From the NCBI GenBank assembly GCA_051872335.1, contig JBJEDT010000025.1, positions 51,365 to 115,364 on the forward strand: a stretch of DNA of 64,000 nucleotides, written 5' to 3'. Numbering within the stretch: the first letter of the stretch is position 1; the number at the start of each line of letters is the position of its first letter. The notes under the pieces were generated by a model. It had not been told where the DNA came from. It worked only from the letters and a program-made list of their open reading frames with translations, and did no database searches. This DNA comes from Bacilli bacterium (GTDB lineage: Bacteria; Bacillota_I; Bacilli_A; RFN20; CAG-826). Below are positions 33,282 to 38,933 of the stretch, piece by piece. A program made the position numbers and the translations under genes.

Positions 33282-34715
33282 TTATTTCTCTATCTTACTA
33301 TAATATTTTTGTAATGAGCTTTTTGGTTTTTCTGGAATAGTTAATAACAATTCACCTTTTTCGACAAGAGGTTGAATAATTTGAGATATAACATGATTTC
33401 TACTCAAACCCAAATATGCAACTATTTCATCACGTGATCTAGGAATATGGCAAAAAGATATAACTTTTTCATTATAAGAATTAGAATTATCATCAAACGA
33501 TTTCTTAATTATTGTTTTAAACTGACCATTTTTAGAAATAAAAATAGGTGCAGGCATATTGTTTTCTAATAATTCTTTTCTAATTGTAGGTATTCCAGAA
33601 TATCTATTTTCTGTAATATGTAAAAGTTCTAAAATATTTGAAAGAATGATATTTCTGGTCTCAGGTCTTGCTATTCCTAATTGCTCAACAGAAATACCTC
33701 CAAATAAAACACCAGGATTAGTAATTTCAATTCTATCAGAATATATTTCTAAACTAACAGGAATGCCTTCAGTATATCTACTATAATCTCTATGTACTAA
33801 AGAGTTAAGTAAAGCCTCTCTTATAGCTTTCAAAGGATATTCATATTTGTCTTCTCTTTGTCCTAAATTATTAATGATAGTATATGATTTAATATTCTTT
33901 CTTATAAAATTCATACCTTCTTCTATCATCTCGTCTATTGGTCCTGTTATTCTTCTGTTATCAATAAATCTTTCATTACTAGTCCCAACATCACCTTTTT
34001 GAATACCTGGAATACAAACAGCAGTAATTGAATATTGTGGGAAATATGCTTGTGGGTATTTTGAAAACACCACAATAGCAGCTAAAGTTGGTTTGCCACC
34101 TTTTGATATTCCCATAAGTTCATTAATATTATTGTCTGAAAGAATTTTTGCTAAATTAGTTCTTTCTTCCTTTACAGCAGTTAAGTACTTATTATATTTA
34201 ATGTCATCAAATAATTTAATTTGGGTGTCATCAACTATTCTAAGATCATCTTTGATTCTTTGTTTATATGACTCATAAGAATATATCTCGTATTCTGTCA
34301 TTTGTTCGTCAGCTTCGCCAACACGAATATACGAGCCTTTATATTTTCCAATGCCTTTGTAATAACAAGGTCTATTATAATAATCAATACCAGGTATCTC
34401 TGCAGATACCACTTTTTTATCATTATAATTAGCAACTGTGAATAGAGCTCGAACAGGAGGTTCCATTTGTTTACATTGTTCTGATATTTTTTTTATTAAG
34501 TCATTAACATCATAGACACCACAAACGAAGTAATCCTTTTTTTCGTCGATTCCAAACACTATAGTACCACCATTATCTTGATTAGAAAAAGAAGATAATG
34601 TATCATAGAGCTTCTCAGGGCATCCTTTAAAAGCAGATTTTATTTCTAAATTATTTAATTCGGTTTTAATACTTTTAATATTATTAATTAATTTTAGTAA
34701 TTCTTCTACTTGCAT
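33282..34715 (-). CDS. Divergent-AAA (AlbA_2/Schlafen-like) + HATPase_c_4-type putative DNA-binding regulator
   Basis: N-terminal …DNGGTIVFGID… AlbA_2-like region, and a C-terminal wHTH-like segment (…IVAYLGLSRNHVISQIIQPLVEKGEL…). Confidence 0.55.
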   Translation of the reverse strand: MQVEELLKLINNIKSIKTELNNLEIKSAFKGCPEKLYDTLSSFSNQDNGGTIVFGIDEKKDYFVCGVYDVNDLIKKISEQCKQMEPPVRALFTVANYNDKKVVSAEIPGIDYYNRPCYYKGIGKYKGSYIRVGEADEQMTEYEIYSYESYKQRIKDDLRIVDDTQIKLFDDIKYNKYLTAVKEERTNLAKILSDNNINELMGISKGGKPTLAAIVVFSKYPQAYFPQYSITAVCIPGIQKGDVGTSNERFIDNRRITGPIDEMIEEGMNFIRKNIKSYTIINNLGQREDKYEYPLKAIREALLNSLVHRDYSRYTEGIPVSLEIYSDRIEITNPGVLFGGISVEQLGIARPETRNIILSNILELLHITENRYSGIPTIRKELLENNMPAPIFISKNGQFKTIIKKSFDDNSNSYNEKVISFCHIPRSRDEIVAYLGLSRNHVISQIIQPLVEKGELLLTIPEKPKSSLQKYYSKIEK

Positions 34716-35447: not shown

Positions 35448-36356
35448 TTATATATTTTCTTGTAAATCTTTTTTATTATTTTTTATATAAGAAAAAATTA
35501 ATAAGACTAAATTACCTAATAATACAAATCCATATATAATAAACCAATATAAAATACTATAAGATTTACTTGTTAAAGTGATTAAAGTAATTAATAAACC
35601 TAAAGACAAAGTACATAAAACAATATTAATCACAAATCCTATACTTTTCAAATTAAAACTATTAATAATGGAAGTAATAAGTGGTAAAGCCACTAGTAAA
35701 TAAAATAAATAGAAAACAGGAATACTCTTATTTAATAAAATATCAAAGATAGTTAAAGTAGTTTCTTCATCTACATATACTAAAGGAATAGTAAAGAACA
35801 TAACAGCTGATACACAAGTTAATGCATAAGATATTAATTGAAGTGAACTTAATTTTGATGGTTCACTTTTTCTAGTAGATCCTATTAATTCCATTAATGC
35901 ATTATTATTTTCTAATCCTTTAAATAAAGGATAACCGATAATAGTAACACATACAAATTCTCCAACTGCAACTTCAAGAACTGTAATAAAGAAAGGAATT
36001 TCATAAACTATGCTTAATTCTGCTCCAACAATTAAACCGACAAATAAAGTAGGCCATAATGATGCAATAAAAAGCCTTTTACTTAAACATATAAAAATAC
36101 ATGGAAGTATTGTTGATAATGTACCAAACACAATATCAACCCATCCTAAAGGTGAAAAACAGTTAGCAATTAAACATCCTAATGAAATAGAATATCCATA
36201 TTTTTTATTATAAAAACATAAAAGAATTAACGCTTCTGAAATTCTAAATTGAAGAGGACCATAACTTAAAGGTGCAATACCTACAGTTAAGGCAACATAC
36301 ATAGCACAAATAATTGCTATACTAGAAAGATCTTTAATAATATTTTTTCTAGTCAT
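35448..36356 (-). CDS. queT: Queuosine-precursor transporter QueT-like protein with about 140-aa C-terminal multi-TM extension
   Basis: Motif PLSYGPLQFRISEALILL matches the QueT (COG4708) FG..QFR.SEAL signature. The likely start is the ATG at 36356 (RBS AAGAGGTG) rather than the GTG at 36365. Confidence 0.6.
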   Translation of the reverse strand: MTRKNIIKDLSSIAIICAMYVALTVGIAPLSYGPLQFRISEALILLCFYNKKYGYSISLGCLIANCFSPLGWVDIVFGTLSTILPCIFICLSKRLFIASLWPTLFVGLIVGAELSIVYEIPFFITVLEVAVGEFVCVTIIGYPLFKGLENNNALMELIGSTRKSEPSKLSSLQLISYALTCVSAVMFFTIPLVYVDEETTLTIFDILLNKSIPVFYLFYLLVALPLITSIINSFNLKSIGFVINIVLCTLSLGLLITLITLTSKSYSILYWFIIYGFVLLGNLVLLIFSYIKNNKKDLQENI

Positions 36357-36379
36357 GGTAAACACCTCTTTTCAAGCAT

Positions 36380-36410
36380 GAAAAAAGAACAGTATTCAAT
36401 AAACCGTTCT
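36380..36410 (-). terminator. Intrinsic terminator hairpin (AGAACGG…CUGUUCU + U6) in the queT leader; riboswitch expression platform
   Basis: A 7-bp stem, 11-nt loop and U6 lie directly upstream of the RBS. Confidence 0.6.
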
Positions 36411-36443
36411 TTGTAATAAATAACATAAAATTCATAAAAATAC

Positions 36444-36492
36444 ACCCCTTGTTTTGTTATTTTAGAAGATGGTTATGCAAGGAACATCTTCT
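36444..36492 (-). promoter_or_regulatory. preQ1-I-type riboswitch aptamer
   Basis: Minus-strand RNA reads AGAAGAUG-UUCCUUGCAUAAC-CAUCUUCU-AAAAUAACAAAACAAGGGG. This is a P1 stem plus an A-rich tail (UAACAAAACAAGG), nearly identical to the T. tengcongensis preQ1-I tail UUAACAAAACAAGG. The tail CAAGG can pair with loop CCUUG (pseudoknot). It sits upstream of queT, the canonical genomic context. Confidence 0.6.
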
Positions 36493-36523
36493 TGCTAATA
36501 TTGTATATCAATTATTTAAAAAA

Positions 36524-37570
36524 TCAATTAAGAAATCCATATTTTATTGCAAGGAAAATAAAAGCAATAAAAATACCTAAGCAAATAAAGAAAACAAATA
36601 AATTGACAATTGTTGATTTTTTTCTTCTTTGAGTATTTTTTAAAAGAGTTTTATATCCATCTGAACTGATACCTTCTCTAATACATTCATCTAAGACATT
36701 TCGATATTCAGCCATATTACCAAATGGTTTACCAGCTTTTACTAAATCAGTGTCACTTACACAACCACGTTTACATAATAAAATCATCCAATAACATGTA
36801 GAACATTTATAATCATTTCTTATTAAAGATTGATAGATTGGTATTGCATCACTAAATAAAGTAGCTTCTCTAAATTTATGTGCTAATCCCATAACAATTT
36901 CAAAACGCTCTTTATATTGGGAAGGAAAGAAAGTAATGAGAGTATTAATGATATCAATAATGTTTAAATAGTCAATTATCTCTTTATAATGTTCAATAGC
37001 TTGGTAACAAGCATCAATTACAAATTCGATACTTTCATATTGTTCTTTATAAGAACCATGTAAATTAACAATAGCTTTTACTTTACTTAAATCACGTAGT
37101 TTAGAAACACGAAGATAAAATTCGTGCTTGTTATTACAAGATGCCTGACAATAAATAGCATATTTTAAGCAAACATAATCATTAGGAATGTGTTCTAAAT
37201 AAATCTTAATGTACTTTGATGCATTATCAAAATCATTATATTTAAATATAGCAAGGTTAATATGTTCAAGTAATAAACTATATAATCTTTCATCTTTATT
37301 TCTAATAAAATATTGTACTAATTCATCATAGGCTGTTTCTGTAAGAACAGTATTTAAGGAATTACATGATACTAATAATTGGTAATATGGAATATGATTA
37401 TCAAGTACTTCATATTGTGATGATAATTTTAAAATTTTATCTAGTTTATCAAATTCTCCTTTTTTAATTAATGAATTAGCAAGCAAAGAAAAATCATCAA
37501 TATACCCAATAATATCTGGTATATTTTCTTGTTCAAATAATTCAATTAATTTTGAATAAGATAACTTCAT
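36524..37570 (-). CDS. Hypothetical protein with C-terminal TM anchor (348 aa)
   Basis: ORF with a C-terminal hydrophobic helix IVNLFVFFICLGIFIAFIFLAI. Helical repeat-like N-region. Confidence 0.4.
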   Translation of the reverse strand: MKLSYSKLIELFEQENIPDIIGYIDDFSLLANSLIKKGEFDKLDKILKLSSQYEVLDNHIPYYQLLVSCNSLNTVLTETAYDELVQYFIRNKDERLYSLLLEHINLAIFKYNDFDNASKYIKIYLEHIPNDYVCLKYAIYCQASCNNKHEFYLRVSKLRDLSKVKAIVNLHGSYKEQYESIEFVIDACYQAIEHYKEIIDYLNIIDIINTLITFFPSQYKERFEIVMGLAHKFREATLFSDAIPIYQSLIRNDYKCSTCYWMILLCKRGCVSDTDLVKAGKPFGNMAEYRNVLDECIREGISSDGYKTLLKNTQRRKKSTIVNLFVFFICLGIFIAFIFLAIKYGFLN

Positions 37571-37586
37571 AAGAACTCACCACTCT

Positions 37587-38477
37587 CTAATAATCTTTGT
37601 TATATACTTTTTTACAAATATATTTTGCGTATAATAAAGCAATATTTACTCCTGTACTAGATTCAATTCCATTAAAGAAAGCATTCGAATCTACATCACA
37701 AATAATAGGTTGCCCATGATCTCCAATTAAAAGATCTACTCCACAGTAATCTAAATCTAATAATTCAGCAGCTTTTTCAGCAACTTCTTGATAAGCTTCA
37801 GGTAAAATGAAATTAACGTGACTTAGTGAACTAAATTCATTATTTGACATAAAATCATCTTTTGTTTTTCTATCAATAGATGCAACAACTTTCTTATTTA
37901 TTAAGATTGCCTTATAGTCATGTCCTCTTGATGATTCGACATATTCTTGATAATAATGCTTTTTATATATCATTCTTTCTTCGACATCTTTTAGTTCTCT
38001 ATCATTACCAATTAAAATAGTTTGTGCTGCTAAAGAAGAATAAGATTCTTTACATACAAGAGGATATTTCATATGTTTTTTTATAACTTTATAAAATTCA
38101 AATTCATTTATATTTCTAGAACAAAATGGTGCAGAAATCGTAGTAGGAGTTTCAATGCCATGTCCTGCTAAACAAATATTAGCATGCATTTTATCATCGC
38201 ATAACATCATACTAGCTACATTATTAAAAACAGGTATGCCAGTCTTTTCAATTAATTTTGCAATATAAAAATCTTTATCTAAGTACACTACAAAATCATA
38301 GTCGCCAATATTATTAACGATTTCACCATTTTTGATATAACAAGCAAGAAAATTATTTTCTCTAATGTCAACATCAATTCCTAAATTTTTAAATTCAATT
38401 CCTAGTCTTTTTGCTTGGTGCTCAACACTAGCGTATACGCAATAAGCGTTTACTATAATTAGTCCTTTATTAAACAT
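37587..38477 (-). CDS. RimK-like ATP-grasp ligase, paralog A
   Basis: Architecture and motifs of the RimK/alpha-L-glutamate-ligase-type ATP-grasp family (…YKAILINKKVVAS…DYCGVDLLIG…). 296 aa. Confidence 0.55.
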   Translation of the reverse strand: MFNKGLIIVNAYCVYASVEHQAKRLGIEFKNLGIDVDIRENNFLACYIKNGEIVNNIGDYDFVVYLDKDFYIAKLIEKTGIPVFNNVASMMLCDDKMHANICLAGHGIETPTTISAPFCSRNINEFEFYKVIKKHMKYPLVCKESYSSLAAQTILIGNDRELKDVEERMIYKKHYYQEYVESSRGHDYKAILINKKVVASIDRKTKDDFMSNNEFSSLSHVNFILPEAYQEVAEKAAELLDLDYCGVDLLIGDHGQPIICDVDSNAFFNGIESSTGVNIALLYAKYICKKVYNKDY

Positions 38478-38552: not shown

Positions 38553-38933
38553 TTATTCTTTGTCTTTACAATCCTCGCAAATACCATAAAAAGTTAATTC
38601 ATAACTAAAGATTTCATCATTACCAATCATGGAAGGATAATCAACTTTTATACTTGGATCATTTGCGTCTATATCATAGACATTGCCACATTTTTTGCAC
38701 ACAAAATGATAGTGTTCATCTTTTACTGTTTCATAATAAATTTGTCCATTAGCACTAATAATTTTAATTAATCCAGCATCAACTAATACTTCTAAATTAC
38801 GATAAATAGTTGCTACAGAAGCTTTATTTGATGTTTTTTGAATATAATCAATTATATCTGCAATAGATGAATGCTTCAATTCATGAATAGCATTATAAAT
38901 TACTGCTCTTTGACTTGTGTTTCTTTTAATCAT
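38553..38933 (-). CDS. Fur-family transcriptional regulator (Fur/PerR/Zur type)
   Basis: N-terminal wHTH (TSQRAVIYNAI…ADIIDYI…ATIYRNLEVLVDAGL) and C-terminal metal-site pattern HYHFVCKKCG…CEDC. Confidence 0.75.
   Translation of the reverse strand: MIKRNTSQRAVIYNAIHELKHSSIADIIDYIQKTSNKASVATIYRNLEVLVDAGLIKIISANGQIYYETVKDEHYHFVCKKCGNVYDIDANDPSIKVDYPSMIGNDEIFSYELTFYGICEDCKDKE

Follow-up and report, generated by a model that had tools for sequence, protein, structure and literature searches.

A preQ1-I-type aptamer ahead of a long queT in a Bacilli bacterium and its candidate expression platform, a leader ORF through an intrinsic terminator

A preQ1-I riboswitch ahead of queT, the gene of a queuosine-precursor transporter (the ECF-type S component for preQ1), is a common, textbook arrangement, and in Escherichia coli pyrBI a ribosome blocks an intrinsic terminator, the signal being UTP-sensitive pausing of the polymerase. 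Here we analyse a locus that may draw on both principles. In a 64-kb stretch of a Bacilli bacterium (contig JBJEDT010000025.1, positions 51,365 to 115,364; hereafter the window, meaning the whole stretch), a predicted preQ1-I aptamer is found directly 5' of a long queT, and the two are connected by a short upstream open reading frame (uORF), which crosses an intrinsic terminator and stops at the queT start. We propose that preQ1 may control queT by gating translation of this uORF.

Aptamers of the preQ1-I class fold into an H-type pseudoknot with an A-rich L3. Type I aptamers carry "UC" before the 3' strand of helix P1 and bind two ligands, whereas type II aptamers carry "AC" (PMC11625349); the type II stoichiometry is 1:1. 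Two type II riboswitches are closest to the window: that of Thermoanaerobacter tengcongensis (Tte; CUGGG-UCGCAGUAAC-CCCAG-UUAACAAAACAAGGG), which controls queT translationally, and that of Bacillus subtilis (Bsu; AGAGG-UUCUAGCUACAC-CCUCU-AUAAAAAACUAAGG), which controls queC at the level of transcription (sequences from PMC10639078). In Bsu the L3 tail forms an antiterminator, according to a 2024 review of preQ1 regulatory strategies that mentions neither a uORF nor a leader peptide. A riboswitch-gated uORF is found in Mycobacterium tuberculosis: the ppe2 B12 riboswitch gates uPPE2, and termination-reinitiation where the two frames overlap at AUGA yields PPE2 (Kipkorir et al., NAR 2024, PMC11260477). 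Finally, ribosomes coupled to RNA polymerase are reported to prevent intrinsic terminator hairpins (PMC5021804).

The preQ1-I-type aptamer

The original prediction, made from the letters of the window, comprised a P1 stem, a 13-nucleotide (nt) loop with CCUUG, an A-rich tail, a terminator and a ribosome-binding site (RBS), and all of these were found at the claimed minus-strand coordinates. The leader features are read on that strand and given in window positions; those of the aptamer are as follows.

36492-36445, minus: preQ1-I (type II-like) aptamer, predicted from covariance-model scores of 56.6-64.6 bits, covariation, tail identity with Tte and the "AC" criterion
36492-36485 and 36471-36464, minus: P1, AGAAGAUG paired with CAUCUUCU, 8 base pairs (bp)
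36484-36472, minus: aptamer loop, UUCCUUGCAUAAC, 13 nt
36463-36445, minus: A-rich 3' tail of the aptamer, AAAAUAACAAAACAAGGGG
36463-36452, minus: A-rich L3, AAAAUAACAAAA
36482-36478 and 36451-36447, minus: P2, loop CCUUG paired with its perfect complement CAAGG in the tail, 5 pairs
36450-36445, minus: Shine-Dalgarno (SD)-like AAGGGG, buried in P2 upon pseudoknot formation, 9 nt 5' of the uORF AUG

The original prediction had named a missing Rfam PreQ1 hit as evidence against itself. Formally the hit is missing: across the whole window not one Rfam family, tRNA included, attains its gathering score, and RF00522 (PreQ1) gives no match at E <= 10 in the 301-nt leader slice (36300-36600). Yet the test does not discriminate, because positive controls fail the same threshold. 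Against a gathering cut-off of 39 bits, a classical Clostridium queT leader (L011, 2294-2341) scored 23.0 bits and a sister aptamer (L001, 2442-2487) 14.2 bits, and no PreQ1 was found at gathering score in 20 queT loci totalling 92 kb. The RF00522 negative is therefore uninformative. The printed consensus of this family carries "UC", as in type I, and its threshold misses a type II-like "UUCCUUGC.UAAC" group. Among the 83 related Bacillota loci searched, about 45 have a member of this group 5' of queT, and RF00522 is practically blind to it.

Related leaders were gathered from GTDB genomes (80 loci) and metagenome assemblies (21 loci). Two covariance models (CMs) were used, R1 comprising 16 queT leaders and R2 only other queT leaders, with the clade of the window excluded. 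R1 yields a single strong match in the window (64.6 bits) and 42 matches at E <= 0.03 directly 5' of queT among 84 sources, i.e., the 83 related loci and the window. R2 scores the element at 56.6 bits (E 1.4e-11), again as the sole strong match in 64 kb. The element is far beyond chance.

In a CM-guided alignment of 36 distinct leaders, compensatory changes occur at 6 of the 7 pairs of P1, its loop-proximal G-C pair is invariant (36/36 leaders), and 94.8% of the P1 cells are paired. The H-type pseudoknot between the tail CAAGG and the loop CCUUG, as originally proposed, pairs perfectly in the window, and 99.4% of the P2 cells are paired among the relatives. Overall, 96.7% of cells are paired, a score reached by none of 500 shuffles, and no slid register comes close. 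The covariation check in related leaders thus bears out P1, while P2 shows one-sided changes only and is conserved, but not proven via covariation; two poorly aligned sets, L002/L004 (CUUU/AAAG vs CUCU/AGAG) and L009 (CCUG/CAGG), hold hints of it. An alignment of 23 aptamers made with MAFFT (A2) mis-registered the sequences with loop insertions and was replaced by the CM-guided A6. An alternative 5' pairing, GCAAG/CUUGC, which appeared in the first minimum free energy (MFE) fold, was dropped: it is not kept in the related loci L081, L083 and L084 and needs an upstream transcription start.

The loop ends in ...AUAAC, of which AAC is invariant among the aligned leaders, and under the "AC" criterion the aptamer would be type II-like. 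With type II aptamers it shares the "AC" that adjoins the P1 3' strand on its 5' side, the C (36472) being the specificity cytosine, as well as the H-type pseudoknot and the A-rich L3, and its position ahead of queT is that of Tte. The "UUC" after the P1 5' strand and the downstream terminator are Bsu-like; the SD buried in P2 is Tte-like, and the 14-nt tail UAACAAAACAAGGG is identical to that of the crystallised Tte riboswitch. Unlike type II aptamers, the window has a P1 of 8 bp rather than 5, and its P2 consists of five Watson-Crick pairs that bury AAGG fully, a type III-like trait, found here in a member of the Bacillota with an AU-rich P1. Position directly 5' of a confident queT (PF06177, 1e-39), CM score, P1 covariation and tail identity together make the element very probably a member of the preQ1-I class, and the call of such an aptamer before queT holds up well.

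The opposite view, that a chance or decayed element precedes a queT expressed constitutively from its own RBS, can point to the Rfam match that is missing even at E <= 10. We consider it very improbable: Rfam fails on the positive controls too, the independent CM gives E 1.4e-11, P1 covaries, and a 29-nt aptamer core is identical between loci whose QueT proteins are just 55-64% identical.

Leader ORF, terminator and modes of control

In most relatives, the 3' tail of the aptamer is predicted to be the SD that drives queT itself: in about 40 related "direct-type" leaders, CAAGGAG occupies the tail position as queT's own SD, with the AUG 6-12 nt further. In the window, the AUG 9 nt after AAGGGG (36435) opens a 28-codon ORF, and the SD and AUG of queT follow about 75-90 nt further. 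The buried SD of the window thus serves the uORF and not queT, unlike that of Tte. The original prediction had overlooked both the SD function of the tail and this conserved uORF, which passes through the terminator and overlaps the queT start. The features concerned are listed below.

36527-36500, minus: promoter, sigma-70-like, TTGATT-16-TACAAT, found by motif scan
36435-36349, minus: uORF of 28 codons, MNFMLFITKNGLLNTVLFSCLKRGVYHD followed by the stop; covers the entire terminator, and its UAG (36351-36349) overlaps queT codons 2-3
36462-36455 and 36425-36418, minus: putative apo-state helix from MFE folding, L3 AAAUAACA paired with UGUUAUUU (uORF codons 4-6)
36412-36384, with the U-tract to 36381, minus: intrinsic terminator hairpin, uORF codons 8-18
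36370-36363, minus: queT RBS, AAGAGGUG; GGUG or GGAGG is kept at the same position in alignment A7
36356-35448, minus: queT, 302 amino acids (aa) from the ATG at 36356; residues 12-149 are QueT, an S component of the energy-coupling factor (ECF) type, and residues ~160-302 an extra extension with four transmembrane (TM) helices

Matching -35/-10 boxes are kept in L081, L083 and L084 (A7), and the promoter position would place transcription initiation about 7 nt downstream, at the foot of P1. A second open frame (GUG 36443, 30 codons) was rejected as a start; it is open in the window and L081 only, and its GUG abuts the SD.

The strong terminator that had been noted 34 nt 3' of the tail is confirmed: AGAACGG (36410-36404) pairs with CUGUUCU (36392-36386) and is followed by U6. 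ViennaRNA extends the hairpin to 10 bp (36412-36384) with a 9-nt loop and -9.2 kcal/mol. A simple terminator scan, limited to loops of 8 nt, missed the hairpin because its loop of 9-11 nt exceeds that limit. The 5' strand of the terminator corresponds to uORF codons 9-11 (K-N-G) and the 3' strand to codons 15-17 (T-V-L). In alignment A7, AAGAACGG...GUUCUUUUU is kept in all four related leaders and forms the best-conserved leader block outside the aptamer.

The uORF architecture is common to the window and the three other known members of its QueT sub-clade, and uORF stop and queT start overlap in 4/4 leaders. The overlap reads AUGACUAG in the window; AUGACUAA in L081/82 (QueT 84% identical to that of the window, 28 codons, stop UAA); AAAUGA in L083 (55%, 26 codons, UGA); and AUGAAUAG in L084/85 (64%, 27 codons, UAG). 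The encoded peptides are unrelated except for the codons dictated by the terminator stems, and the frame is kept open despite indels (A7), which suggests selection on the act of translation rather than on its product. From these comparisons, coverage of an intrinsic terminator and a stop at the queT start codon appear to be the only conserved properties of the uORF. When the spacer was dinucleotide-shuffled, an ATG 4-12 nt past the SD together with an ORF ending at the queT start arose in 1.4%, 1.8% and 2.2% of cases, per lineage; the lineages share ancestry, so that these probabilities cannot be multiplied. The next-closest QueT relatives (P0007, P0008, P0012, P0014 and P0016) are all of the direct SD type and the uORF type is confined to four protein clusters; a protein-guided scan of metagenome contigs yielded only 4 distant loci, all without an aptamer.

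A more distant locus, L093 (1-125), appears to represent a second, independent leader-ORF/terminator design that supports the same logic. Its aptamer, the 5' end of which is lost at the contig end, carries CUAGGGG as a type-I-like tail. At a distance of 8 nt from the SD, an AUG opens a 10-codon uORF (MSFMEVTTHK), and the UGA of this uORF falls within the 3' strand of a different, 9-bp terminator; queT's own RBS comes next. The QueT of this locus is long and 40% identical to that of the window. In L064, an SD tail is likewise followed by a uORF of 10 codons; its stop lies within a putative antiterminator, which is the opposite logic, and the locus was not used as support.

In two clostridia, Clostridium tanneri and C. 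algifaecis (L019 and L063, 1739-2500), the same aptamer (56-57 bits) is found ~700 nt 5' of queT. Its SD tail drives an ORF of 230-234 aa that contains the motif CxxxxCxxC and matches Radical_SAM weakly (E 5e-4, short of the cut-off). The stop of this uncharacterised gene, which is predicted to be preQ1-regulated, abuts or overlaps the queT start.

The original prediction had spoken of a terminator platform. For each leader, we compared the MFE including the terminator with the best fold in which the terminator 3' strand is blocked.

Window, uORF type: gap -9.6 kcal/mol
L083, uORF type: gap -6.5 kcal/mol
L084, uORF type: gap -7.2 kcal/mol
L038, classical terminator: gap -2.4 kcal/mol
L010, classical terminator: gap -4.1 kcal/mol
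L023, classical terminator: gap -0.1 kcal/mol

In the classical leaders, competition of the tail (CUACGG or CUAAGG) for the terminator 5' strand is plain to see. In the window, the best alternative falls 9.6 kcal/mol short of the terminator fold, as opposed to 0.1-4.1 in the classical controls, and the folding calculations point to no RNA antiterminator of comparable stability, unlike in Bsu; L093 likewise has a gap of -10.9 kcal/mol and no RNA alternative. Pairings of L3 or the tail with the terminator 3' strand were considered and discarded (-2.9 to -5.0 kcal/mol, worse than shuffles). The predicted L3 helix lies 5' of the terminator, does not overlap it and keeps SD and AUG in its loop. It is AAUAACA/UGUUAUU in the window, covaries to AACAAUA/UAUUGUU in L084 and is absent in L083; by its predicted position, it looks like an "SD-open" helix of the apo state, not an antiterminator. 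On comparative and thermodynamic grounds, within a small clade, "leader-ORF/terminator hybrid" fits the arrangement better than "terminator platform".

These folds bear directly on a transcriptional OFF switch of the conventional, RNA-only kind. In the ligand-free state, the aptamer 3' half UUGCAUAACCAUCUUCU would pair with the 5' strand and loop of the terminator (AAGAACGG...) as an antiterminator; preQ1 would lock P1 and P2 and free the terminator, and the uORF would be incidental or a relic. Terminator-type preQ1-I switches such as Bsu queC are well known, and the 5' strands of the terminator (AAGAACGG) and of P1 (AGAAGAUG) are alike, so that both are able to pair with UCUUCU. In L084 there is a 7-bp match, CAUAACC/GGUUAUG (P = 0.036), and in folds made before the 3' strand is transcribed the aptamer/terminator pairing is the MFE structure. 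The corresponding window duplex reaches only -6.8 kcal/mol (P = 0.35), no better than shuffles, and would need the 8-bp P1 to be melted. Moreover, the terminator state of the uORF-type leaders is 6.5-9.6 kcal/mol more stable than the alternatives, the complementary segments vary by lineage while the uORF is common to all, and the geometry from SD to AUG and the stop/start overlap are left unexplained. We regard an RNA-only switch as rather unlikely.

Control through the uORF would proceed as follows. At high preQ1, the P2 pseudoknot would bury AAGGGG and no ribosome would load on the uORF; with the uORF untranslated, the terminator hairpin would form and transcription would end at ~36381, 25 nt before queT. 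At low preQ1, L3 would pair with uORF codons 4-6, leaving SD and AUG in the loop, and a ribosome close behind RNA polymerase would occupy the terminator 5' strand and allow read-through, in a pyrBI-like attenuation. This ribosome would terminate on AUGACUAG and then re-initiate on queT, or unmask or clear the queT RBS. Judged by leader comparison and folding energies in a small clade, we give an even chance to the full chain, in which queT is switched off at high preQ1 via the leader ORF and without an RNA antiterminator.

Both halves of this proposal have a counterpart. As in ppe2, a translational OFF aptamer would mask the SD of a short leader ORF with a stop that overlaps the main-gene start. 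Ligand, aptamer class and phylum differ, uPPE2 has no internal intrinsic terminator, and ppe2 lacks an SD of its own while queT has one; the ppe2 relay is experimentally shown, that of queT is inferred. As in pyrBI, a leader ORF extends across a terminator hairpin that a close-following ribosome would prevent from forming; unlike in pyrBI, the signal in the window would be riboswitch-gated ribosome loading.

The ppe2 precedent also lends weight to a purely translational relay, in which preQ1 gates the uORF and queT responds via termination-reinitiation or RBS unmasking. The hairpin would then be a leaky or constitutive, unregulated attenuator, and may also end read-through from the upstream operon with the RimK-like gene; the stretch from the upstream gene end (36524) to the aptamer holds no terminator. 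The stop/start overlap is kept in all lineages, the 9-nt loop and AU-rich stem may make for an inefficient hairpin, and by inspection and MFE folding the U-tract UCUUUUUUCA can cover the queT SD in the window by pairing with UGAAAAGAGG. This pairing is, however, not kept in L083 or L084, and the RBS of queT itself is strong. The conservation of the block AAGAACGG...GUUCUUUUU suggests that the hairpin matters, and a constitutive terminator between promoter and queT would merely waste expression. A relay of this kind seems unlikely to us.

Several points weigh against control through the uORF and the terminator. Initiation and ~5 codons of elongation are needed before the polymerase reaches the U-tract 55 nt downstream, which requires pausing or tight coupling. 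Transcription-translation coupling is weak in Bacillus subtilis, and we know of no account of it in the Mollicutes-related lineage of the window. P2 varies on one side only (G-U), apart from a single double change that is doubtful, and shows no compensatory covariation. The aptamer/terminator complementarity amounts to -11.2 kcal/mol in L083 (P = 0.12) and -11.0 kcal/mol in L084 (P = 0.04) and could be a strand-exchange antiterminator there. The uORF architecture occurs in three diverged lineages only, which share ancestry, and the shuffle probabilities are not independent. Finally, the uORF could represent the ancestral queT start in a state of decay, and queT has a good RBS of its own, so that coupling is not strictly needed.

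The long QueT and its neighbourhood

An identical protein is already recorded, under the name "QueT transporter family protein", from a metagenome-assembled genome (MAG), "Bacilli bacterium". The list of open reading frames gives it 305 aa from a GTG; that GTG sits within the RBS. PF06177 (QueT/COG4708) matches residues 12-149 of 302 over profile positions 3-140 of 141 (1e-39, 136.5 bits vs a cut-off of 33.7). The oddity originally noted, a QueT of about 300 aa with an extra multi-TM half, is real; it is not unique, as at least 25 homologues have 279-320 aa, mainly in Anaeroplasmataceae, Acholeplasmatales and "Bacilli" MAGs. Compared with a typical QueT S component, the protein carries a C-terminal extension of ~140 aa.

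Among homologues, the N-terminal half is well conserved and the C-terminal half poorly, and the latter has no Pfam match. The suggested internal duplication or fusion was rejected: comparison of the C-terminal with the N-terminal half yields a BLASTP E of 0.4 and an hhalign probability of 0.4%. An AlphaFold2 (AF2) model (mean confidence score pLDDT 81.5) places four extra TM helices at residues 171-189, 215-233, 237-262 and 267-294, along with a short beta-hairpin, and a Foldseek search of this model against the PDB matches the N-terminal half only, to the ECF S components RibU and FolT. The QueT of L084, 64% identical, has 179 aa and lacks the extension, which is thus dispensable on evolutionary timescales.

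The long form is not tied to riboswitch type. It occurs with direct-type leaders (L044, L049, L052, L062 and L094), with uORF-type leaders (window, L083 and L093) and without any riboswitch (L092 (801), L102 (501), L103 (226) and L104 (246)). Long queT genes of the last kind start 8-15 nt after the preceding gene, e.g., in a RecO-QueT-YlmH arrangement.

A RimK-like ATP-grasp gene is repeatedly found 5' of queT, in the window at 37587-38477 (minus; PF08443, 1e-23) and also in L084/L085 (1-1325), L001, L020 and L090. The window clade has, in addition, an unannotated protein of 345-348 aa with a C-terminal TM segment and no Pfam match (window 36524-37570, minus), and the order RimK-348aa-QueT-YcxB is common to the window and L084/85. 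An M-box (Mg2+) riboswitch (109 bits) lies ~2 kb 3' of queT in L020 (4486-4645), and an MgtE gene follows YcxB in L084 (2649-3540); magnesium transport genes thus recur near queT. Elsewhere in the window, and with no riboswitch link seen, are genes for a 477-aa protein with Schlafen AlbA_2, HATPase_c_4 and Fic-like C-terminal domains (33282-34715, minus) and for a Fur-family regulator (38553-38933, minus). Four contigs with Mollicutes-like, AT-rich queT genes and leaders (L002, L003, L014 and L022) are titled Elusimicrobiaceae, Treponema or Bacteroidales MAGs and are probably mis-binned.

Implications for preQ1-dependent control

The aptamer itself was called correctly and is ordinary, one more preQ1-I element before queT, and the four-TM extension of QueT marks an uncharacterised subfamily of ECF S components. 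New is the proposed expression platform, a ligand-gated leader ORF over an intrinsic terminator that is coupled to the start of the main gene, which does not feature in the 2024 review of preQ1 strategies. It is possible, if somewhat doubtful, that in a small clade of Mollicutes-related Bacilli a preQ1-I riboswitch of the translational kind was converted into a transcription attenuator, with the ribosome as antiterminator. The same logic in L093, with another aptamer subtype and another terminator, hints that this is perhaps an unrecognised general class of expression platform.

If true, the two classical outputs of the aptamer, SD occlusion and termination, would be linked through the ribosome, and a classification of platforms as either "terminator" or "SD" would mis-assign such leaders. 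It would also imply functional transcription-translation coupling in a Mollicutes-related lineage of the Bacillota.

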